IMG/VR virus record: IMGVR_UViG_3300037483_000295
Span: 1-44,406 of that record
Origin: a virus
Taxonomy: Duplodnaviria; Caudoviricetes
Reading direction: 5' to 3' (one strand)
DNA: 44,406 nucleotides
The translations under genes were made by a program, and so were the position numbers. The notes under the pieces are model-generated. The model was given only the letters and a program-made list of their open reading frames with translations, searched no databases and had not been told where the DNA came from. Every line of letters starts with the position of its first letter. Position 1 is the first letter of the stretch. This document shows, in pieces, positions 1,965 through 44,021 of the stretch.

Positions 1965-3455
1965 GACGTTCTGCCCCTGCTGCGCCGCGCTCATGACGGC
2001 CGATTCCAACAGCACCCGCTGCGCTGCCGTGAGATGGGCGCCCGGCGTCGGAGCACCCCCGCTCCGCGTAGCGGTCAACAGGGATTGAATCCGCTGTGGC
2101 GTCATGCGGTCGGCAAGCCCCTTAGAGACAGCCCCAGCCATCATGAGCGGCAACGTCGCGCCGCCCGTAGCAATGCCCGCTGTGCCGTGAAGCATAGTCA
2201 TCAGTCCGTTTCCGCCGGGCGACAGCTTGCCGAGCAGCCGCAGCATGTTCTGGACAGGACCGCCCTTCACAACGGACTCCATCAGTTCGCGCTCTTCTTT
2301 CGTAAACCCACGGGCCTTCTTCGGGTTGTCCAGAATGGCCCGGATGTTCTGTCGGATAGCGTTGTCGAGATTCCCGCCTGATCCGGTAGAGGCCGCGCGT
2401 CGCTCCGCTTTGGTGACGGCGTCTTCGATCATCTCCGTCTTGCGCAGCCGCGACCATAGATCACGCGCCCTGGTGATCTCCGAACTCGCCTTCAGGGGAT
2501 CACCAGCGACAACATCCATGTGCGACAGGTTGCCGACATAATCGTCGAGTCCGTCGATCATGAGGTCTGCAATCCGGCGCTCGTCGGCCTCAGGACTGGC
2601 TGCCGCACCCTTCAGGACGCGCCGCAGAATTTCCAGCTCACTCAGCGTCGGCTGTTTCCCAAGGGCCTCTTCCAGCCGCGCAAGCGCTGCCGTGGCCCGA
2701 GGATGAATGGTCTTGTCGATCCCGGCATCAACCGCCGCATCGGCAATATCCGAGACGGCGCGCGAGAAACTCGATTGCGAAACGACAAGACCGGCCGCGT
2801 CCGCTGCGTCGTAAGCTTCATGGGCCGACTTCTTCAGGGCTTCCTTTGTCGGAGCCCCGCGCCGCAATGCAGATGCCGCAGCACGGTTGGCCGCAAGCGA
2901 GCCAACTCCGCCGAGCACGCCGCCGGTTACGCCGCCAATGGCCGCGCCGGCAGCCGCACTGCGGAGGCGATTTTCCGCGCCGCCTTCTCCTGTGCCAAAA
3001 CCATAGGCCCCGCCATAGGCAGCACCCTCCCCGGCACCCCTCAGCATCATGTTGGGAATTGTCGGGCGGGCGACGTTAAGCAAGGTCGCGCCCTGCTTCG
3101 CCAGCGTGCCTGCCGTGCCGAGTCCGCCGAGAATTTCAGCTCCAGTTCCGAGAACCGGATGTTCAGCACGATAGCTCTCGATCCCCTGCCGGATTTCGCC
3201 CAGGCGACGATTATAGGTTTCTCCGGCCGCTGTCCCGGCCTGACCCACATCCCATGTTTTGGGAAGCTCCTTCAAGAACGCCCCCGTTGCTGCGCCGGCA
3301 GCTCCGACCTCATCGGCGAATCCGAAGGTCGCCCCCTGCTCCAATAGGTCCATGATGTTGCCGGTCGACGTGCTGCCCGGCGCCTTCCTGACAGGCATCT
3401 TGGGCAAGAGGCCGCGACGGGCCGCCTCGACGAGGAGCTGCTGTTCCTTATTCAT
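1956..3455 (-). CDS. internal virion / DNA ejection protein
   Basis: 499 aa, Ala/Gly-rich helical, QGATFGFADE motif; last large gene of the podovirus tail block. Confidence 0.7.
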   Translation of the reverse strand: MNKEQQLLVEAARRGLLPKMPVRKAPGSTSTGNIMDLLEQGATFGFADEVGAAGAATGAFLKELPKTWDVGQAGTAAGETYNRRLGEIRQGIESYRAEHPVLGTGAEILGGLGTAGTLAKQGATLLNVARPTIPNMMLRGAGEGAAYGGAYGFGTGEGGAENRLRSAAAGAAIGGVTGGVLGGVGSLAANRAAASALRRGAPTKEALKKSAHEAYDAADAAGLVVSQSSFSRAVSDIADAAVDAGIDKTIHPRATAALARLEEALGKQPTLSELEILRRVLKGAAASPEADERRIADLMIDGLDDYVGNLSHMDVVAGDPLKASSEITRARDLWSRLRKTEMIEDAVTKAERRAASTGSGGNLDNAIRQNIRAILDNPKKARGFTKEERELMESVVKGGPVQNMLRLLGKLSPGGNGLMTMLHGTAGIATGGATLPLMMAGAVSKGLADRMTPQRIQSLLTATRSGGAPTPGAHLTAAQRVLLESAVMSAAQQGQNVLP

Positions 3456-8798: not shown

Positions 8799-9455
8799 CT
8801 AATCCCCCGAAATGTCTGTCCGCACCTGCAAGGGTGCGCCGCTGAAACGGTCTGTCTCGTTCGCATAGCAAAGCCCGTTGATCGCAGCGATGAACAGGCT
8901 TCCGTACTGCTGCGCCTTCTCGGCGTCCTGGATGTAGATCGCCGCCTCAAGAAGCGTCCCGTACAGGTAGATGCTGGGGTAGTTGGTCAACAGCCAGTTG
9001 GTCGTTGTCGAGGCCGACAGGGCGTCGAACTTCTTCCAATAGGTGAGCTTCCCCGTATAGGTCGCGTCCGGGGTCGGACCCACAACGATGTTGTCGCCCT
9101 CAAGCGTGAACGCCTTGGGCTCGCCCGTCGTGGTCGACATGTATTTGCGCCAGAAGTCGTTCGGCGCCAGGAAGTCGAGAGCCTGCACTGGATCGGTGTC
9201 GATATAGAGCCGCCGCGCCCCCAGGAAGCTTGTTGGCAAAGCCGTGGTCTGTGACGATATGCCTAGGTCAGTTGACTGCTCCATTGCCCGCACCCGGAGG
9301 GCCGGGGACGGATAGGGAGGGCCGGCGCCATAGGCGATGCGCGCTTCCGCAAGCGTGACGAAGTCGTCATCCGGCGTCGTCAGGTCATCCCTGGCAAGCC
9401 AGCCAGCGGACGTGCTGATGGCGTTAAGCAGGCTGGTGCGGTCTGTGATCGCCAT
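8799..9455 (-). CDS. head-to-tail adaptor protein
   Basis: WLARDDLT..FVTLAEARI..LRVRAME..TNWLLTNYPSIYLYGTLLEAA pattern typical of podovirus adaptors. Confidence 0.75.
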   Translation of the reverse strand: MAITDRTSLLNAISTSAGWLARDDLTTPDDDFVTLAEARIAYGAGPPYPSPALRVRAMEQSTDLGISSQTTALPTSFLGARRLYIDTDPVQALDFLAPNDFWRKYMSTTTGEPKAFTLEGDNIVVGPTPDATYTGKLTYWKKFDALSASTTTNWLLTNYPSIYLYGTLLEAAIYIQDAEKAQQYGSLFIAAINGLCYANETDRFSGAPLQVRTDISGD

Positions 9456-10116
9456 TGGCTTTATACCTCGGAACCATCTTCCCCTGGTGCTCTACCGCAT
9501 GAACAGACGGCCCCATGATCTCCTGCCACGGCGCCGCATATTCCATGATCTGCGCCTCCTGAATCCACAGGTCCGCATGCTCGCAATCGCGCGTCTCTTC
9601 AAACGCCGGCACGCCCATCGTGTAGTGAATCAACGAAACCTCATCTGTCGGCTTGTCGTATCCGACAAGATGGTTCCACCGTGGGTCTAGCTTGCCGATG
9701 TTCTTGGTCCATCCAATCGAGTGCAGGTTGTTCGCCATCGCGACATACTCACGGGTCAGGATCGCATTGTCGGGATGAGCGCAGTTGAACAGCATCACCG
9801 CCCCGCGCTCGAATGCCGGATTCGTGTCGCAGACGTGAACAGCCTTGTTCTGGTCCACACCGTTCATGATGTTGTAGATATCGTCGACCACGATCACGTC
9901 CGCATCCATGAACACGGCCCAGCCCTGGAAGTTGCAGAGCCAGGGCACCAAGAACCGCGTCCAGGTGAACGGGGTAAGGCCGGGGCGCTGAAAATCGAGC
10001 TGCTCCGCGATCAACGGGCAGAGCCAGACCGGCCGATGGGCGCGGCGCAGGATAGAGAATTGCGCGACGTTGTAGCTAACCGGCTGCCGCGGATCGAAGC
10101 CGAGAAACACTCTCAC
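9424..10116 (-). CDS. glycosyltransferase, GT-A fold (GT8-like)
   Basis: VFLGFDPR..FTWTRFLVPWL..FMDAD (DxD)..WNHLVG..IHYTMGVP. Confidence 0.8.
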   Translation of the reverse strand: MRVFLGFDPRQPVSYNVAQFSILRRAHRPVWLCPLIAEQLDFQRPGLTPFTWTRFLVPWLCNFQGWAVFMDADVIVVDDIYNIMNGVDQNKAVHVCDTNPAFERGAVMLFNCAHPDNAILTREYVAMANNLHSIGWTKNIGKLDPRWNHLVGYDKPTDEVSLIHYTMGVPAFEETRDCEHADLWIQEAQIMEYAAPWQEIMGPSVHAVEHQGKMVPRYKANGDHRPHQPA

Positions 10117-11068
10117 CGTTGTACTCCTCCATCATGAAATCCAAATCCGCAGGCATCAGATGAGGCCCACACGGAAGACACATCATCCGGGACCACTTGT
10201 CGGCCATCGGGAACGCTTTGGTTGACCGATATGGCGGCAGGGTATGAATCGGGGCAAAGACCGGCCTCGTCTCGACACCCGGCATCTCGCGCTTTGGAAC
10301 GACGTGCATCCATGTTCCCCGGCCTCCTATCTCTGCCACGAGGCGGCCCCAATTCTTCAGCCGGCGCCTCGTGAACTCGCCCCACCGCTCAAGCTGCGCA
10401 CAGCCGACAGCCGCTTGCAGATTGGTCATCCGGTAGTTCAATCCCGCGACAGGGTGCTGCCAGTGTCCTGTCATCCCGTGGCTGCGGTAGAGCCGCACCG
10501 GATCGGGATCGCTGGTCAGGACCACGCCCCCCTCGCCCGTCGTGATCGCCTTGTTCCCATAGAAGGAGAAGCAGGCGTAATCCCCGTGCACCTGATAGGG
10601 CTGGATCGTCTCGGCCGCATCCTCGATCACAACGAGGCCCGGCAAGCACCGCTTCAGGTTCGCTACATCTCCAAGCAGGCCGTACAGATGCACGGCAATG
10701 ACGGCCTTTGTCCGTTCGGTCCGGGCCTGCCTTGCAAGCGCGGCCGAGATAAACATGTTGTTGTCCACATCCACCAGGACCGGCGTGGCCCCGACGTGCT
10801 TCACCACGGCGGCGGTCGCGGCGAATGTCAGGTCAGGAACCAGAACCTCGTCACCAGGGCCGATGCCGGCCGCCAGGAGCGCCAGGTGCAGGGCTGCCGT
10901 ACCGGAAGAGCAGGAGACGGCTGGAAGGTCGTACAGGGCTCCGAAATCGTCTTCAAAGCGGTCCACATAGGGACCAGAGGAAACCCGGCCTGAAGCCAGA
11001 GCGTCTTGCAGATAGTCTGCTTCGTTGCCGGTCAGATCGGGCCGGGCTAGCGGGACAAGTGCCGCCAC
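10076..11068 (-). CDS. DegT/DnrJ/EryC1/StrS PLP-dependent sugar aminotransferase (perosamine synthase-like)
   Basis: SSGTAALHLAL, VIEDAA, SFYGNKAITTGEGG (Schiff-base Lys), GLNYRMTNLQAAVG. Confidence 0.9.
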   Translation of the reverse strand: MAALVPLARPDLTGNEADYLQDALASGRVSSGPYVDRFEDDFGALYDLPAVSCSSGTAALHLALLAAGIGPGDEVLVPDLTFAATAAVVKHVGATPVLVDVDNNMFISAALARQARTERTKAVIAVHLYGLLGDVANLKRCLPGLVVIEDAAETIQPYQVHGDYACFSFYGNKAITTGEGGVVLTSDPDPVRLYRSHGMTGHWQHPVAGLNYRMTNLQAAVGCAQLERWGEFTRRRLKNWGRLVAEIGGRGTWMHVVPKREMPGVETRPVFAPIHTLPPYRSTKAFPMADKWSRMMCLPCGPHLMPADLDFMMEEYNGESVSRLRSAAAG

Positions 11069-11874
11069 GTCAGCCCCTCGGCCATCTCCGCCGGCTTCCA
11101 TTGCGAATACGCAAGATCGGCAGCCCACTGCGTCCTGTCCGGCTTCGACGGGCTGTCGATCTCCGCCAGATCATGCCCGGCAACCGCCCATGCCATCGAA
11201 CCGCGGTCCAGCGCGAATACGGGGTATCCCTGGATCGCCGCGTCAACGGCCGTGTTGCTGTTGTAGGTCACGACGGCCCAGCAGCCTTCTAGTGCTGCGG
11301 ATAGCGGTCCAACAGAGATTTCGACCCCTCTAACTCCGTAGTCTCGATCTCCAATGAGGGGGTGGGGCCGGAATACGACAGGGCGTCCAGCTCCTCTTTC
11401 AAGGCCTGCAATTGTCGACTTGATCCACCCTCGATGGTCACTACCATCAACGGAGGCATCCCAGGGGAGCTGTCCGCAGACGAGAATATGATCTCCGTTC
11501 CCCTTCCGCGATAAGAGCGGGCGATCAAGCTGTATCCAGCGGTCGCCAGACATTCCTTGATTGCGGAAATCAGCCCGTCCGTTAAGGCCATCGAATCCTG
11601 CGGCGTAGTAGTCTTCTGGTCCGTCGCCTCGCCTGACATAGCCTGTCTCCAAGATGATGGTTCGCCCGACCCGCTGCTGCTTGCGGATAACCGCACCGCG
11701 CGGCCAGGACAGGGGAACCTGTGATTTGTAGACCCCGAACACGACCGCAATATCGGCAGGTTTGTAAACCGCCACCGGTCCAATCGACTTGCTCTCGGGA
11801 CAGCCTTCATAAAAGGCCGTCAGCACTCGATCATGTACGGGATTGCCGCTCAGGTAGACTCTGACACTGACCAC
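11047..11874 (-). CDS. capsule-polysaccharide-synthesis-like glycosyltransferase (KpsC/KpsS, GT107-like)
   Basis: QLPWD (QxxxD), FRPHP and VVTYNSNTAVDAAIQGYPV motifs. Confidence 0.65.
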   Translation of the reverse strand: MVSVRVYLSGNPVHDRVLTAFYEGCPESKSIGPVAVYKPADIAVVFGVYKSQVPLSWPRGAVIRKQQRVGRTIILETGYVRRGDGPEDYYAAGFDGLNGRADFRNQGMSGDRWIQLDRPLLSRKGNGDHILVCGQLPWDASVDGSDHRGWIKSTIAGLERGAGRPVVFRPHPLIGDRDYGVRGVEISVGPLSAALEGCWAVVTYNSNTAVDAAIQGYPVFALDRGSMAWAVAGHDLAEIDSPSKPDRTQWAADLAYSQWKPAEMAEGLTWRHLSR

Positions 11875-12023
11875 GGCTCTCCCTCATACCCCAAAACAAG
11901 CGGCTGCTCCCCCTTGCCGTCGCACTTAGGGCATCTCATCCCCTGGATTTCCCCGGTCCCCTCGCAATGCCGGCAAGGGACAAAATCCACATAAAGCGGC
12001 CTCAGCTTACGAACGGGCGGCAT
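11850..12023 (-). CDS. 57-aa CxxCxGxG x2 zinc-finger mini-protein
   Basis: Not in the ORF track. MPPVRKLRPLYVDFVP-CRHCEGTG-EIQGMR-CPKCDGKG-EQPL...; fills the gap between two cassette genes. Confidence 0.65.
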   Translation of the reverse strand: MPPVRKLRPLYVDFVPCRHCEGTGEIQGMRCPKCDGKGEQPLVLGYEGEPWSVSEST

Positions 12024-12613
12024 ACGAACACCAGAAACATACCTGCGGTTCCGACCTTGACATCGCTCTGCTTGTCCTCCTGCGACCCCCGGTAGATCAC
12101 ATCGAAACCTGCGTCGTTCAACAGGCCCGTGAAATCCTGCGGTGTGTAATGTCGCAGATGCGGGTACTCATCCATGGCGAACTTCTCGGCGATGAACGGG
12201 TACTTCAGCTCGTTGGGAACCGAGCAGACCAGGATACCGCCCGGCCGCAGCGACTCCTTGAAATGCCGCAACGCCTTGGGCGCTTCTGGCAGATGTTCCA
12301 GCGTCTCGAATGACACGATGGTGTTGAACGTCTCCGCGCCCCACGGGCGTTTCAGAATGTCGCCCTTGATCCAGCGGACAATGTTCTCGGTGTCATAGTG
12401 CTGCCGGCCCATCTCGATAGCTGCCGGCGAAATGTCCACCGCCGTCACTTCATGCCCGTCTGTCGCCAGAAGGAAGGAGCCATAGCCGATCCCACAGGCC
12501 GCATCCAGGATCGGACCGTGTTCGCCGTTTGCCCACAGCCGCGCGAACTCATAACGCGCTACGTGATCTCGGCGGATGCCGGACATAACGGAGGAGGTCT
12601 GGCGATCAAGCAT
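12002..12613 (-). CDS. class I SAM-dependent methyltransferase (glycan O-methyltransferase-like)
   Basis: HVARYEFA, ILDAACGIGYGS, VSFETLEHL, LVCSVPN. Confidence 0.85.
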   Translation of the reverse strand: MLDRQTSSVMSGIRRDHVARYEFARLWANGEHGPILDAACGIGYGSFLLATDGHEVTAVDISPAAIEMGRQHYDTENIVRWIKGDILKRPWGAETFNTIVSFETLEHLPEAPKALRHFKESLRPGGILVCSVPNELKYPFIAEKFAMDEYPHLRHYTPQDFTGLLNDAGFDVIYRGSQEDKQSDVKVGTAGMFLVFVCRPFVS

Positions 12614-13373
12614 GGGCCGCCTGCCAGTACGGTTCGTTGCGCTCGTGTACAAGATCGCTCTGCGTCGAACGGTCATCCTTCCTCTTGCCCTTCCGGTGAT
12701 CCATGTAGGCGCCGAGCGCGCTATTCACGAATGGGTGCATCGTCCCGTCCGGCAAGCCCTTCGATAGGTTGACCATCTGGTCCTTTGGCATGCAGTCCTT
12801 GATCGCATCGAAGGCGAAGCAGTCGTGCCAGCCCTTCAACGCGAGGAAGCCGCCGGACAGGAAGACGTTGCGATACGCCTTCATGAAACCACTGGTCAGG
12901 GGATGGTCGGCATTGAAGCCGATGAAGCCCGATTCCGTGTAGTACCAGCCCTCACGGCCGAGATAGCAGCACATCTTGTCATCGGGGAGCATGTCGTCCG
13001 GGAACGTCTCTGGCACGTCACTGTGGGTGAACACGTCCGCGTCGACCCAGAAGACCTTGCCCCCATACCGCTTCACCGCATCGCACTGGATGAACGTCTT
13101 ACGGGCCATGCGGGCGTCATAGTTGATGTTGTAGTTCGGCCCTATCTGCCCGCACATGATGGGAAAGCGCAGCTTGTCGAAGAAGCCCACGAGCCCGTCC
13201 ACCGCAGCGATCGGCCAGCCGGAACAGCGATAGTCCTGTACAGGCGGCTGACCGGCCTCATAGTAGACGACGCATCGGACTGTCTCGGGCCAGCGTTCGG
13301 TGAAGCTCTCCAGGAATGTCCGGCCGTACTGTTCGAAACCGGCGGGGGAGAAGGAGGTTACGACAGTGTGCAT
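12606..13373 (-). CDS. glycosyltransferase, GT-A fold
   Basis: FWVDADV (DxD), YTESGFIGFN, WHDCFAFD, DHRKGKRK. Confidence 0.7.
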   Translation of the reverse strand: MHTVVTSFSPAGFEQYGRTFLESFTERWPETVRCVVYYEAGQPPVQDYRCSGWPIAAVDGLVGFFDKLRFPIMCGQIGPNYNINYDARMARKTFIQCDAVKRYGGKVFWVDADVFTHSDVPETFPDDMLPDDKMCCYLGREGWYYTESGFIGFNADHPLTSGFMKAYRNVFLSGGFLALKGWHDCFAFDAIKDCMPKDQMVNLSKGLPDGTMHPFVNSALGAYMDHRKGKRKDDRSTQSDLVHERNEPYWQAAHA

Positions 13374-13546
13374 CTGCCAAATTTCCTGAAAAGCACTACC
13401 GTACTCACAACTCCGAAAACGCCAATCATCCCGCAAATCGTTGCCGTGATCGGGCCTCCTTGCTCAAAGACAGCCCAAGCTAAAAGCAACATCGTTATCC
13501 CGAGCATGGCCGGACAGATGGCGATCAGCTTAATTTCCGATGGCAT
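13358..13546 (-). CDS. two-TM membrane protein
   Basis: Two hydrophobic segments; overlaps both neighbours in the operon. Confidence 0.55.
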   Translation of the reverse strand: MPSEIKLIAICPAMLGITMLLLAWAVFEQGGPITATICGMIGVFGVVSTVVLFRKFGRCTLS

Positions 13547-14870
13547 GCGCGATCTCCTCGATCAGTGGTTTCCAATCCCCCTTGCTGCGGTAGAGATGAA
13601 TGGGAAACCACGGCATGTCGCCATCGGCCGCCCAATGCCATGTAGGCTGGGGAGGGACCAGCACATGACACGGGACCCCCAGGCCCCCGGCCAGCAGCGC
13701 CGCTGCCGTGGTTACTGAGACGACGCAATCGAGCTGCGAGACGAGCGCTGCCGTGTCGTCATAGTCCTGCGTCTGTGTCGCGTAGGGGAAGAACTGCACC
13801 CCGTGTTCCGGCCCTTCCGTCCCCTTGTACTGCAAGGAGACGAACGTGTTGCCGGTGTCCAGCAGTGGCTTGAGCTGATCCAGCGTCACAGACCGCGTTG
13901 CCGTCCGGGTCTGCCGTGTCCCACCCGTCCAGGCTAGGCCGATCTTCTTGCCCGGCATCTGGTCGAACACGCCGCGCCACATGCTTGCCCGCTGCGGGTC
14001 GGGCTTCAGATATGGCGTCCTGGGGAACTCGCCCTCGGACCGATAGATGCCCGCAAGGCTGCCGATCAAACAGCTATAGTCGTGCGGCTCATGGTCGAGC
14101 CAGGAACGATCCCCAACGTGCCGCGTGCCGTACACATGGCAGCCGAAGCTGCGATGAAACAGGTTCTGCAAACGATGATCGCACTCGATCACAACCTCAT
14201 GGTCCTTCATCAGGTCCGGGATGACCGAGGCGAACATGACCTCATCGCCGATCCCCTGCTCGCCCTGGACCATGACCTTGCCCGGCTGGCCATCCCAATA
14301 GGGCGTGCCATAGTCCTTGATCTTGCGGAACTTCGAGCCGACACCGCACTGATAGTTTTCCCAGCCCTCTTTCCATCTGCGCAGAGCCAGGAAGGGCATT
14401 GAGATATTCTGGCCGTACTCCCGGCGGTCCTGATCGTTCCTGATGGCATTGGCCGCCATCTCGCCCCACTTCATAGCCTCGGCGTGCTTGGCCTGGTTGG
14501 CGTGGATCAGCAGCATGTTGTTGAGGCCGGCGAAGCTCTCGGGGTCTACCTCGACTCCCTTGCGCATGTAGAATTCGGCCTCTTCGAGCTTGCCGATCTC
14601 GATACATGCCTTGCAGAGATAGTTCCAGACCGCCAACTGCTCGGGCACGTCACGCGCCAAAGACTGAAACCAATTATAAGCGAGCCCGAAATTGTCATTC
14701 TCAGTGAAGATTTGACCGATGAGGAAACGTGCGTAAGGGTTTCGCGGATCGGCGTCCAGGACCTTGTTGGCAATCTTGAGGGCTGCGGCATATTCGCGTT
14801 CTGCGATGAGGTCTGCGACTTCGGCGAGGCGCCCTACAATCGGCCCAGCGCCGTTCTCAGGTACCGCCAT
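13530..14870 (-). CDS. TPR + GT-B (GT9-like) protein glycosyltransferase, FlmG/FlbA-like architecture
   Basis: N-terminal TPRs, then WDG..GEQGIGDEVMFAS, KIGLAWTGG, DYDDTAALVSQLDCVVSVTTAAALLAGGLGVP. Confidence 0.8.
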   Translation of the reverse strand: MAVPENGAGPIVGRLAEVADLIAEREYAAALKIANKVLDADPRNPYARFLIGQIFTENDNFGLAYNWFQSLARDVPEQLAVWNYLCKACIEIGKLEEAEFYMRKGVEVDPESFAGLNNMLLIHANQAKHAEAMKWGEMAANAIRNDQDRREYGQNISMPFLALRRWKEGWENYQCGVGSKFRKIKDYGTPYWDGQPGKVMVQGEQGIGDEVMFASVIPDLMKDHEVVIECDHRLQNLFHRSFGCHVYGTRHVGDRSWLDHEPHDYSCLIGSLAGIYRSEGEFPRTPYLKPDPQRASMWRGVFDQMPGKKIGLAWTGGTRQTRTATRSVTLDQLKPLLDTGNTFVSLQYKGTEGPEHGVQFFPYATQTQDYDDTAALVSQLDCVVSVTTAAALLAGGLGVPCHVLVPPQPTWHWAADGDMPWFPIHLYRSKGDWKPLIEEIAHAIGN

Positions 14871-15166
14871 TCCGGGTCGTTCAACAGCCTCTTCACCGCC
14901 GGCCAATGATCCTTGTCGAACACATTGATCCCCTTCTCGTTCATCCACTTCTCGATGATGACGTTGGGGATCGACGCCACGAAGCGCATTTCCCGCGCCT
15001 TCGAAAGCCATCCGTTTACCTCGTGGTTCTGTAGATACTTGTTGAGTTCCAGGATGGGCTCAACGTCCTGCCACGTTTCCAGATATGACGTGTCGGTCAG
15101 ATCGTCATAGTGGAAGTCGGTACGGATGCCGGAGAACGGATCGTAATCGAACAGTCGCTTATCCAT
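14834..15166 (-). CDS. conserved hypothetical protein downstream of MCP
   Basis: QDVEPILELNK..VASIP..LNDPEWRYLRT pattern; positional conservation in podoviruses. Confidence 0.75.
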   Translation of the reverse strand: MDKRLFDYDPFSGIRTDFHYDDLTDTSYLETWQDVEPILELNKYLQNHEVNGWLSKAREMRFVASIPNVIIEKWMNEKGINVFDKDHWPAVKRLLNDPEWRYLRTALGRL

Positions 15167-37172: not shown

Positions 37173-37403
37173 ATGGCTACGATCTGCGCCCGCTGCATCA
37201 ACCTCGTCATCGTCAACAAATCCGACTCCTGGTTCCGATGGCAATGCTTCGCCAACCGAACCGAAGCACGTCCGAACTACGTCACGGGAGGCGTAGAGGA
37301 GCCGTACAAGCTATGTCGCTACGTCAACGACGGCGAGTGTCCCGACTACCAGGAAGGCCCGAATAGCCTGCAACCGAAAGAGACGCCCGATGAAACTAGC
37401 TGA
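37173..37403 (+). CDS. Cys-rich hypothetical protein
   Basis: CARC..C..C..NDGECPDY. Confidence 0.6.
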   Translation: MATICARCINLVIVNKSDSWFRWQCFANRTEARPNYVTGGVEEPYKLCRYVNDGECPDYQEGPNSLQPKETPDETS

Positions 37404-38049
37404 TCTTGCCAGACCCTTCCCGCCCGAGCGCGTGTCCTGGCGCGTTGGCTCGACGACGCAGGACAAGAAGCGCGGCATGGCACTCGCCTATATCGACGCC
37501 CGCGACGTGATGGATCGGCTGGATGAAGTGTGCGGCCCTGAGGGTTGGTCTTGCCGCTATCCAGCGACTTCGGGCAAGGCGGTCCTCTGCGAGATCGCAA
37601 TCAAGATCGGCGGCGAATGGGTTGGCAAGGAAGACGGCGCCGGGGATACGGACGTTGAGGCTGAAAAGGGCGCGCTCTCCGATGCCTTCAAGCGGGCTGC
37701 TGTCAAGTGGGGCGTCGGGCGCTACCTGTACGATCTGGATAGCCCGTGGGTAGAGCTAGAGGCGGCGGGCAAGAGCTACAAGATACCGGATCGGGAGAGG
37801 GCTCGGCTGCAAGCCATCTTGCAAGGCAAGGCGCCGCCACAAGCCCATGCCCCTGATGCAGTCAACTCGGCCGCCCGTTACATGGCAACCGCCATGGACA
37901 CCATCTCCGTCGCGCCGGGCCAGGAAGCCCTACAGAGATGGTGGAAGGCTGAGTCCGAAAACCGACGCTCTGCCGGCCTCACGCAAGCCGACGTTGACGC
38001 GCTCAAGGTCGCCATGCAGGAACGCCTCGGAGAACTGGTCAATGCCTGA
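37390..38049 (+). CDS. Rad52/Rad22-family single-strand annealing protein (Sak-like)
   Basis: LARPFP..AYIDARDVMDRLDEVCG..EAEKGALSDAFKRAAVKWGVGRYLY. Confidence 0.9.
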   Translation: MKLADLARPFPPERVSWRVGSTTQDKKRGMALAYIDARDVMDRLDEVCGPEGWSCRYPATSGKAVLCEIAIKIGGEWVGKEDGAGDTDVEAEKGALSDAFKRAAVKWGVGRYLYDLDSPWVELEAAGKSYKIPDRERARLQAILQGKAPPQAHAPDAVNSAARYMATAMDTISVAPGQEALQRWWKAESENRRSAGLTQADVDALKVAMQERLGELVNA

Positions 38050-42690: not shown

Positions 42691-42719
42691 TGGCAACCTC
42701 TGCGCATTAGGGCTAATGT
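42691..42719 (+). promoter_or_regulatory. sigma70-like promoter of tRNA-like RNA A
   Basis: TGGCAA-17bp-TAATGT; predicted +1 at 42725/42726, the first base of the acceptor-like stem. Confidence 0.6.
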
Positions 42720-42725
42720 CGTGGG

Positions 42726-42876
42726 GCTGCGGCGGCGTGGATGGACACGCTGGATTTTTTCGGTTTGCTCTATGGATGCTCGCGAGCAGGCATCGTCGAG
42801 CGAGACGAGCGCCGAGGGATAGTGGGATAGGGGCCTGCACCCGAGTCCCGAGCCGGTATCAAGCCCGGCCCGCAGC
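42726..42876 (+). ncRNA. tRNA-like structured RNA A (about 151 nt)
   Basis: Acceptor GCTGCGG/CCGCAGC, D-like GCGTG-gatgga-CACGC, T-like GCCGG-tatcaagc-CCGGC stacked on the acceptor; 101-nt structured insert. Confidence 0.7.
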
Positions 42877-42989
42877 TACTCCCCCACCATCCACTGCACT
42901 GCCGCCCCGATCAGGGCCACGGCCATGATTGCCAGGACGGCCCAGACGAACAGGTGCTCGGCGGCGAGGATGATTCCGAGGATGGTCAT
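42876..42989 (-). CDS. 37-aa hydrophobic membrane peptide
   Basis: Not in the ORF track. MTILGIILAAEHLFVWAVLAIMAVALIGAAVQWMVGE; ATGA-coupled to the upstream gene. Confidence 0.55.
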   Translation of the reverse strand: MTILGIILAAEHLFVWAVLAIMAVALIGAAVQWMVGE

Positions 42990-43207
42990 GGCGAGCAATC
43001 CGGCCGGTTGGCCCTCACCCGGTCCCACTCCGATTCCGTGGCCCAGCGCCAGCGCCCGGTCGTCGCCTCGTCGGGCTCCGGGATCACCACGCCGTACAGA
43101 ACCGAAAGCCGGTAATGCAGGCCGTCGTCGATATAGCAGTCGTCTGGCTGCGGCTCACTCTTGGCACCGCACAGCAGATCGCCGTTGACCCGACAGCGGA
43201 GACTCAT
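42986..43207 (-). CDS. hypothetical protein
   Basis: ATGA-coupled; LLCGAKSEP..DCYIDDGLHYRLS. Confidence 0.6.
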   Translation of the reverse strand: MSLRCRVNGDLLCGAKSEPQPDDCYIDDGLHYRLSVLYGVVIPEPDEATTGRWRWATESEWDRVRANRPDCSP

Positions 43208-43494
43208 GGCTCGATCTCCGGCGGCTCGAGATCGGCCAGCGGATTGAACGTCACGCAGAACGCCCACCATGCATCCAGGCCCGCCTGGGTCTGCCAGTAG
43301 GACCGTTGCAGGGCTCCCGCCGATGGAGCGTCACAGGTCAGCAGCCTGCCGTCCTCGATCACCCGGTCGTTGAACTGCCGGACATTCTCGATCACGTCCG
43401 ACCGGACGGCTTCATACTGAGGACTGCCGATGAGGCCGCACCCCGAGAGGCCGGCGGCGAGCGCGAGGCCCGCCGCCCAGAACATGCCCCGCAT
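43204..43494 (-). CDS. lipoprotein (spanin-like position)
   Basis: MRGMFWAAGLALAAG-LSGC lipobox; TGATG coupling to the holin-like gene. Confidence 0.7.
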   Translation of the reverse strand: MRGMFWAAGLALAAGLSGCGLIGSPQYEAVRSDVIENVRQFNDRVIEDGRLLTCDAPSAGALQRSYWQTQAGLDAWWAFCVTFNPLADLEPPEIEP

Positions 43495-43706
43495 CAGGCG
43501 CTCTTGCCGACCGCTGTGGTCGTCACGATACGCAGGCCGGCGTTGCCGATGACCGTCACGGCCACGATGATCGAGTCGACCACGTCGAGGCCCTGATTGA
43601 CGGCCTCTGCCATCGGCGCAGCCGTGTCGCCGAAGGCTCCGAACTGCGACAGGATGGCAACTAACGCCATGATGCCGTTGAAGATGAGCGTGCGATAACC
43701 CTTCAT
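43494..43706 (-). CDS. holin-like two-TM protein
   Basis: MKGYRTLIFN..two hydrophobic helices..LRIVTTTAVG; AGGAG RBS. Confidence 0.7.
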   Translation of the reverse strand: MKGYRTLIFNGIMALVAILSQFGAFGDTAAPMAEAVNQGLDVVDSIIVAVTVIGNAGLRIVTTTAVGKSA

Positions 43707-43721
43707 AGGTCAGTCTCCTAG

Positions 43722-43750
43722 TTGCGCCGCCGAGGCGGCTGGGGTAAATT
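43722..43750 (+). promoter_or_regulatory. sigma70-like promoter of tRNA-like RNA B
   Basis: TTGCGC-17bp-TAAATT; predicted +1 at about 43757, the first base of the acceptor-like stem. Confidence 0.65.
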
Positions 43751-43756
43751 TGTGAG

Positions 43757-43956
43757 GCTGCGTGAGGCGGGAAAAGCAGACCCGCTGGCGTTGATGGCCA
43801 AGTAGCCGAAGCGGATGTAAAGCCGCACCGATGAGGGTTAAGCTGGCGGCGCATTACTAAGTCCGGCAGTCACGGTCCCGCAGGCGAAGTACCGGAGCGA
43901 CGTGAAGGGCAAGTGCGCATAGCCTGGATCAGTCGGAGTAGCGCCCGACCCGCAGC
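43757..43956 (+). ncRNA. tRNA-like structured RNA B (about 200 nt)
   Basis: Acceptor GCTGCG(T)G/CCGCAGC, D-like GCGGG-aaaagcaga-CCCGC, T-like GTCGG-agtagcgc-CCGAC; 146-nt insert; own promoter and terminator. Confidence 0.7.
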
Positions 43957-43987
43957 ACTTCTCCCCCGCCGGTTCGCTCGGCAGGAC

Positions 43988-44021
43988 AGGGCCGCTCCTC
44001 ACGGGGCGGCCCTTGGCTTTT
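43988..44021 (+). terminator. intrinsic terminator downstream of RNA B
   Basis: AGGGCCGCTCC-tcac-GGGGCGGCCCT then TGGCTTTT; U-tract only on the + strand. Confidence 0.65.

Follow-up and report, generated by a model that had tools for sequence, protein, structure and literature searches.

The DNA analysed here is the virus record IMGVR_UViG_3300037483_000295 of IMG/VR (Duplodnaviria; Caudoviricetes), the whole 44,406-bp stretch of which is called the window; its first and last 127 bases form a repeat. Two elements in the window, A and B, are members of a real, uncatalogued family of phage RNAs that is absent from Rfam. Each was composed of a tRNA-like shell and an insert (the cargo) that replaces the anticodon arm. 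The insert of the shell is a cassette, and the cargo is non-coding, with covarying folds of its own. Scanned on both strands with a descriptor, the window yielded exactly these two elements, at the positions and with the stems and 8-nt T loops given in an original prediction made from the sequence alone. Their parts are listed below, L-numbers denoting loci collected in the family search.

42691..42719, plus strand: predicted promoter of A (weak −35 at 42691–42696, 17-bp spacer, −10 at 42714–42719, 6 nt before nucleotide 1)
42726..42876, plus strand: RNA A, 151 nt, with a type-A elbow (66 bits with the family model R1)
42726..42750, plus strand: 5′ shell half of A (closing-stem strand 42726–42732, CG linker, D arm 42735–42750 with loop GAUGGA)
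42751..42850, plus strand: cargo of A, a long arm and a short bulged hairpin (homologue in L496; replaced in the sister phage L064)
42851..42876, plus strand: 3′ shell half of A (A, T arm 42852–42869 with loop UAUCAAGC, closing-stem strand 42870–42876)
43722..43750, plus strand: predicted promoter of B (−35 at 43722–43727, 17 bp, −10 at 43745–43750)
43757..43956, plus strand: RNA B, 200 nt, with a type-B elbow (only a partial 18-bit match to R1)
43757..43785, plus strand: 5′ shell half of B (closing-stem strand with bulged U43763, AG linker, D arm 43767–43785 with loop AAAAGCAGA)
43786..43930, plus strand: cargo of B, 145 nt (no full-length relative found)
43931..43956, plus strand: 3′ shell half of B (A, T arm 43932–43949 with loop AGUAGCGC, closing-stem strand 43950–43956)
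43988..44021, plus strand: intrinsic terminator-like hairpin and T tail after B (hairpin at 43988–44013 by terminator scan)

RNA A was absent from the R1 training set. The 7-bp acceptor stem stacked on a 5-bp T stem was present in both elements; the closing stem of B is best read as 7 bp with one bulged U, and the variant layout of its 5′ half was also present in L535. Neither a CCA end nor an anticodon arm occurred in A or B, and the two were missed by standard finders, as had been expected: ARAGORN reported 0 genes and Rfam 0 matches at its gathering score (at E ≤ 10 six weak matches appeared in the window, none on A or B). The original insert lengths of 101 and 146 nt are correct when the TGG and the A are counted, whereas TGG after the D stem was not a family feature, since 0 of 121 matches could be parsed with it and the first insert base varied (A 41%, G 30%, T 20%). 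A folded at z −3.2 against shuffled sequence, and the 3′ pattern at ≤3 mismatches was matched at least twice in 14 of 100 shuffles. These in-window statistics were modest; the significance of the elements comes from their homologues.

The 3′ pattern matched 119 loci in IMG/VR, and the 5′ half was found upstream in 107 of 125 matches to it (the window and two GenBank loci counted). To avoid circularity, single-arm searches were employed. With the D arm alone fixed, 111 of 121 type-A and 107 of 121 type-B cases were closed by the A, the T arm and a stem of 7 bp whose sequence varied, and the descriptor gave 0 matches on 0.70 Mb of shuffled loci. The final collection held 386 distinct copies, and IMG/VR was estimated to contain ~710 type-A D-arm, ~550 type-A T-arm and ~480 type-B D-arm stretches. 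No existing Rfam family matched the shell in the window or in 60 further loci. A strict pattern matched GTDB genomes 31 times, 28 of them with a full shell, mostly in Alphaproteobacteria and also in Planctomycetes and others; a phage hallmark gene lay near 10 of these 28 (among 77 proteins tested). Cultured carriers were DMCA (Caulobacter), phiKX1 (Komagataeibacter), Persinger, Orimi01 and PotUPM1, several of them Pseudomonas phages, and none of the five has the element annotated as an RNA. Run over four sequences, R1 detected one copy in each of three virus records. Single queries gave no match in E. coli genomes and four short matches in plasmids, neither of which shows absence. No description of the family was found in the literature (0 hits in an exact-motif text search); a set of 10,006 candidate viral RNAs gave 0 matches in six supplementary files, its files 1, 2 and 4, which could hold a model of part of the shell, lying outside that search (PMC10690425). 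Two shells within 3 kb of each other, in tandem or divergent, were observed at seven loci (L075, L513, L103, L155, L173, L198 and L284), and a Proteo-phage-1 RNA motif (L387, 1198–1278) and an abiF RNA motif (L152, 1381–1416) lay close to shells.

In the shell, a closing stem that covaries freely encloses a D arm of 5 bp and a T arm, also of 5 bp, whose loop has 8 nt; an A that hardly varies precedes the T arm. Stem positions 1–6 were Watson-Crick paired in 92–98% of copies against 26–49% expected, figures that are inflated by the pairing built into the descriptor (the stem parse demanded at least 6 of 7 pairs). Covariation in the homologues was evident from two-sided changes at 19 of 20 pairs in 70 short-insert copies, which 0 of 500 shuffles reached. 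The sequences of the D and T arms were far more conserved than the closing stem.

Two elbow types were distinguished. In type A a D loop GAWGGA goes with a T loop resembling UAUCAAGC that can be read as the canonical loop plus one base; in type B a non-canonical pair is formed by a D loop GAAAGCAGA and a T loop NGUAGCGN. All shell T loops were thus of 8 nt and of two types, and none was the canonical 7-nt TTC loop. D- and T-loop types agreed in 383 of 386 copies, and the window holds both, A being type A and B type B. Co-inheritance alone fails to explain this match, as elbow type differed in 24 of the 89 pairs whose cargo is related. For type B, two D–T loop pairs are predicted, with one compensatory case each (L512 and L100). 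From the matched loops and these compensatory pairs, the predicted tRNA-like L shape of the shell is well supported. At L495 (~2860–3026) a known cargo family was retained with other sequence in place of the D arm, and at L053 there was an apparent second insert within the D loop.

Inserts ranged from 30 to 290 nt, were unrelated and fell into 332 cargo clusters, 299 of them singletons. Among pairs of loci sharing an adjacent flank, 31 of 47 had cargo unrelated by BLAST, the 31 not being independent of each other and one of them (L520/L427) being a diverged pair of a single cargo family; among those sharing both flanks, 4 of 10 remained clearly different in cargo. L157/L345 and L420/L435 had identical shells, flanks 96–100% identical and unrelated cargo, and L040/L087, one D-loop base apart, had near-identical flanks and likewise unrelated cargo. 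In these three pairs the change of cargo began right after the D stem and stopped right at the A that leads into the T stem. L064 is a locus in a 40-kb phage colinear with the window. At site A the 3′ flank was shared with L064 at 91% identity, but the elbow there was type B and the cargo unrelated; at site B the same promoter preceded a different sequence without a shell. The cargo of A recurred with compensatory pairs in an unrelated context (L496), and two parts of the B cargo matched separate contigs of one wastewater run. That phages have a family of tRNA-scaffolded RNAs whose cargo can be swapped, as originally proposed, is supported by the homologues, by covariation and by the cases in which exchange was seen directly.

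Other candidate relatives of the B cargo (one metagenome, three viral pattern matches and a match in Kevin1) were dismissed as chance or coding. After the conserved B promoter in L064 (1064 downward, minus strand), a ~90-nt multibranch structure closed by a GC-rich stem was observed, possibly another non-coding RNA in the same slot.

Exchange probably occurs by annealing at the conserved arms: phage annealing proteins, Erf among them, would use the D and T arms, 20–25 nt each, as regions of homology. A gene of this kind was present in the window and is only a candidate agent of cassette exchange via short homology:

37390..38049, plus strand: Erf-like single-strand annealing protein (PHROG 1097, E 8e-55)

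Between 25771 and 41999 the window and the sister phage G001 shared many 30–110-nt stretches of 88–100% identity amid diverged sequence, a mosaic pattern typical of linker-mediated exchange.

The content of 330 cargos was compared with expectation. Shine-Dalgarno sequences followed by ATG were depleted (15 against 33 expected), and peptide-coding cargo was rejected on that ground. GNRA hairpins numbered 47, where 12.7 were expected, and canonical T arms 11, where 0.3 were; bulged-G motifs were likewise in excess (23 against 10). Three cargo families had compensatory stems together with conserved unpaired motifs. A role as a CsrA/RsmA sponge was rejected, ANGGA loops showing no enrichment (24 against 25.6), as was a twister or hammerhead reading of the B cargo (no Rfam match; CTGAnGA in 9 of 312 against 7). 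Rfam gave one clear cargo match in 60 loci, a nested tRNA in L327; the many weak calls of ARAGORN at low threshold, made with no control, were not counted.

Several individual cargos are described here for their own sake. Those of L362, L396, L417 and L438 formed one family located in tRNA clusters; it had conserved unpaired motifs rich in purines and what looked by eye like a pseudoknot-like pairing that covaries (L362 had no Rfam match); on such inspection they may be ribozyme- or aptamer-like. Nested tRNA-like bodies with abnormal or absent anticodon loops were seen in L327, L356, L006, L018 and L403. A purine-led motif of 14–17 nt occurred twice in each of the cargos of L136, L350 and L529, which suggests tandem protein-binding or seed sites.

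A promoter of the sigma70 kind starting on the first acceptor base had been predicted for each element. The hexamers, the 17-bp spacing and a −10 placed 6 nt before the first paired base were all found, with scores below threshold and only 3 of 6 matching bases in the −35 of A. Across the family, 56 of 382 copies had TANNNT 6 nt before nucleotide 1, the background being 2.7. In the GCTGCG subclass, to which A and B belong, this motif stood at promoter spacing in 39 of 100 copies and the closing stem was exactly 7 bp in 63 of 100; this peak supports the predicted placement for the subclass. About 40 nt of the B promoter region were nearly identical in L064, and the terminator that B had been said to possess was detected at 43988–44013.

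A tRNA was present in 34 of 231 loci; the nearest one was on the same strand as the element in 35 of 35 cases and within 60 nt in 15. CCA followed the discriminator in 5 of 312 copies, and the discriminator was variable (A 45%). Scarce CCA, a variable discriminator and scarce terminators make aminoacylation unlikely as a common function, judging from these sequence features. A 189-nt contig from a freshwater-sediment metatranscriptome of another study covered 43773–43958 with six differences at depth 3, a weak hint of B expression in which strand and ends are not resolvable. A gap in flank cover in run X3 and high depths on the shell of A in X4 and X5 were not used, the latter two being flagged as probably DNA and other family members.

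The original prediction took the topology to match none of the tRNA-mimicking RNAs that it named (tmRNA, bacterial Y RNAs, P1 C4 and P4 CI RNAs). No Rfam match was found, but RNA1 and RNA2 of phage T5 (30501–30644 and 32959–33083 of AY543070, annotated as “tRNA-like stable RNA with unknown functions”) have the same topology as A and B: a closing stem, a D arm, a large insert replacing the anticodon arm and a T arm. Further features shared between T5 RNA2 and the family are the CG linker, the 5-bp D stem, whose loop is of the form GA...GGA, and a GCAGG T stem preceded by A. The T5 RNAs differ in their canonical 7-nt T loop and in lying in the tRNA cluster of a lytic phage; they have neither the 8-nt loop nor the second elbow type, and no description of cargo exchange among them was found. 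Searching the tRNA regions of T5 and T4 with R1 gave nothing at E ≤ 5. Three papers describe rnaC and rnaD, the T4 species 1 and 2 RNAs, as stable RNAs of 119–139 nt from the tRNA region with an unknown role (PMC3014915, PMC9697503, PMC12685909). In rnaC a T arm follows long arms, but the T4 RNAs have a canonical T loop, no recognisable D arm of the family type and no R1 match.

Among tRNAs proper, the closest likeness was to class II tRNA-Leu: the family D loop resembles the Leu pattern GGAA..GGUAGAC (compare T5 tRNA-Leu), and A and B have the T arm and the 7+5 stack. The family differs from tRNA-Leu in having no anticodon arm, C8 instead of U8, a 5-bp D stem, an 8-nt T loop, no CCA and a variable discriminator; an anticodon stem with a 7-nt loop was not found in A or B, either by ARAGORN (0) or by the Rfam tRNA model (0). 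Identity with tmRNA was rejected (ARAGORN tmRNA 0; U3-A70 and not G3-U70 in A and B; a D stem present; Shine-Dalgarno sequences plus ATG depleted in cargo). The C4 RNAs of P1 and P7 and the CI RNA of P4 are small phage RNAs of tRNA-like fold that act as antisense RNAs and are matured by host RNases; identity with C4, CI or IsrK was rejected for want of an Rfam match (window and 60 loci), a same-genome target and a fixed icd/ant context. Bacterial Y RNA (YrlA) was likewise set aside, with no Rfam match on A or B and no recurring neighbour, no search having been aimed at Ro60. In the engineered tRNA scaffolds of Ponchon and Dardel, a foreign RNA is reportedly stabilised by taking the place of the anticodon within a tRNA body; unlike these, the phage shell is natural, has altered loops and carries cargo exchanged between genomes. 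The family is a derived variant of phage tRNA-like stable RNAs, and no prior description was found of its pair of matched non-canonical elbows or of its clean cassette exchange.

The window encodes a terminase, a portal, a major head protein, a NusG-type antiterminator and HTH regulators besides the Erf-like protein; an integrase was not found among the window open reading frames (ORFs) scanned. Its nearest cultured capsid relatives were less than 60% identical and included alphaproteobacterial phages. On the minus strand at 8799–15011, genes for a methyltransferase, a DegT-type aminotransferase, a weakly matched glycosyltransferase and TPR proteins were observed within the virion gene block, possibly for virion or DNA glycosylation.

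As to function, we consider it nearly as probable as not that the tRNA-derived shell is a stable carrier and that the module it holds acts as a decoy, binding proteins when the phage is in conflict with host defences or with rival phages. The interchangeable folded module sits where the anticodon and variable arms would be, held by the shell. The 5′ end would be set in A and B by a transcription start on nucleotide 1, and in copies inside tRNA operons by tRNA-type processing, while the stacked stems and the elbow would protect both RNA ends from decay. The cargo would bind host or phage proteins, which would explain its rapid turnover. Protein-binding decoys are favoured because conflict genes show just this pattern, conserved folds together with fast replacement between near-identical phages, and because the cargo motifs resemble tRNA and rRNA surfaces. 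Among the roles originally proposed, that of a stabilised aptamer or decoy appears to fit best; a decoy for anticodon nucleases fits poorly, as the shell has no anticodon arm. To serve as a decoy for CCA-modifying toxins, the RNA would have to receive a CCA end after transcription, none being encoded. PrrC mainly recognises the anticodon stem-loop, according to PMC3014915, and the shell lacks that element. That same lack argues against the shell itself being the active part, titrating enzymes that act on the top half of tRNA (CCA-end-modifying toxins or elbow binders) around a tolerated filler. The greater conservation of the D and T arms than of the closing stem, the near-canonical T loop of type A and the location of copies in tRNA operons would agree with such titration, but the rarity of CCA, the varying discriminator, the non-canonical elbow of type B and the independent covariation of cargo families make it unlikely. 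Several results weigh against the carrier and decoy reading. Neither a protein partner nor a phenotype was found, nor any gene that co-occurs, so that the decoy step rests on hypervariability and motif content. The stability of cargo scarcely exceeded that of shuffled versions (mean z −0.35), k-turns were not enriched in it, and B (given one base off) folded no better than shuffled sequence (z +1.7). Terminators followed only 11 of 271 copies. The closing stem, family-wide, extended beyond 7 bp (76% at −1, 60% at −2), and with such frequent extension tRNA-type processing fits less well. The inflated pairing figures, the non-independent exchange pairs and an expression record of a single depth-3 contig count on the same side.

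The same near-shuffled stability leaves unpaired stretches in the cargo, which could suit a base-pairing small RNA directed against mRNAs of the host or of other phages; host-specific targets would likewise predict fast turnover, and the shell would mature and stabilise the RNA in analogy with P1 C4 and P4 CI, whose tRNA-like maturation is the model for this idea. We rate it as rather unlikely: no complement above control was found in their own genomes for six elements in five genomes (longest 10–12 nt, as in control genomes), the longest complement to the flanks averaged 8.8 nt against 8.7 nt in the control for 189 elements, and Rfam gave no C4 or IsrK match. A role in cis, either as a processing or stability signal or by convergent transcription or antisense damping of a late (lysis) operon, is suggested by the orientation of A and B against minus-strand late genes, by the many copies just before a same-strand ORF and by endolysins within 3 kb at 5 of 28 genome loci. 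The downstream ORF was, however, on the same strand in 88 and on the opposite strand in 95 of 183 cases, no neighbour gene recurred among 150 proteins, and the conserved elbow and the structured, exchangeable cargo would be left unexplained; such a role appears improbable. In the window itself, the overlap with lysis genes that had been claimed was absent, A sharing one base with a stop codon and B lying within the 43706–44021 gap. The label “lysis region” derives from hydrophobic and lipobox-like sequence, the five minus-strand neighbours of A and B having no match in PHROGs or Pfam; a search with a holin-like protein gave one weak locus. Antisense regulation of lysis genes was thus not upheld, given the lack of above-control complementarity, the mixed orientation and the absence of a recurring neighbour. 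Lastly, the shell could be a recombination hotspot left by a dead tRNA that gathers fragments of structured RNA without function. This would accord with the 299 singletons among the 332 cargo clusters and with cargo recognisable in some cases as tRNA debris. Compensatory change in the closing stem, matched loops, fixed promoter spacing and covarying cargo families point instead to selection on the RNA product, and the neutral-relic reading is strongly disfavoured and very improbable.

The tRNA-like stable RNAs of phages (T4 species 1 and 2, T5 RNA1 and RNA2) continue to be described as RNAs of unknown role. The family offers hundreds of natural variants, pairs of near-identical phages differing only in cargo, swappable elbow types and unannotated cultured carriers, and thereby makes the question of function testable. 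Its shell is a natural counterpart of the engineered tRNA scaffolds, and its cargos are a pool of compact RNA folds missing from Rfam. Tentatively, phages may share a natural RNA display library, in which a standard shell provides the stabiliser and the recombination arms and hundreds of modules are traded as anti-defence or host-control RNAs. If this is true, the modules probably include new aptamer or ribozyme folds, and their trade would parallel that of tail-fibre tips at the protein level. If the cargos are decoys, they would constitute a large unexplored class of RNA counter-defence.

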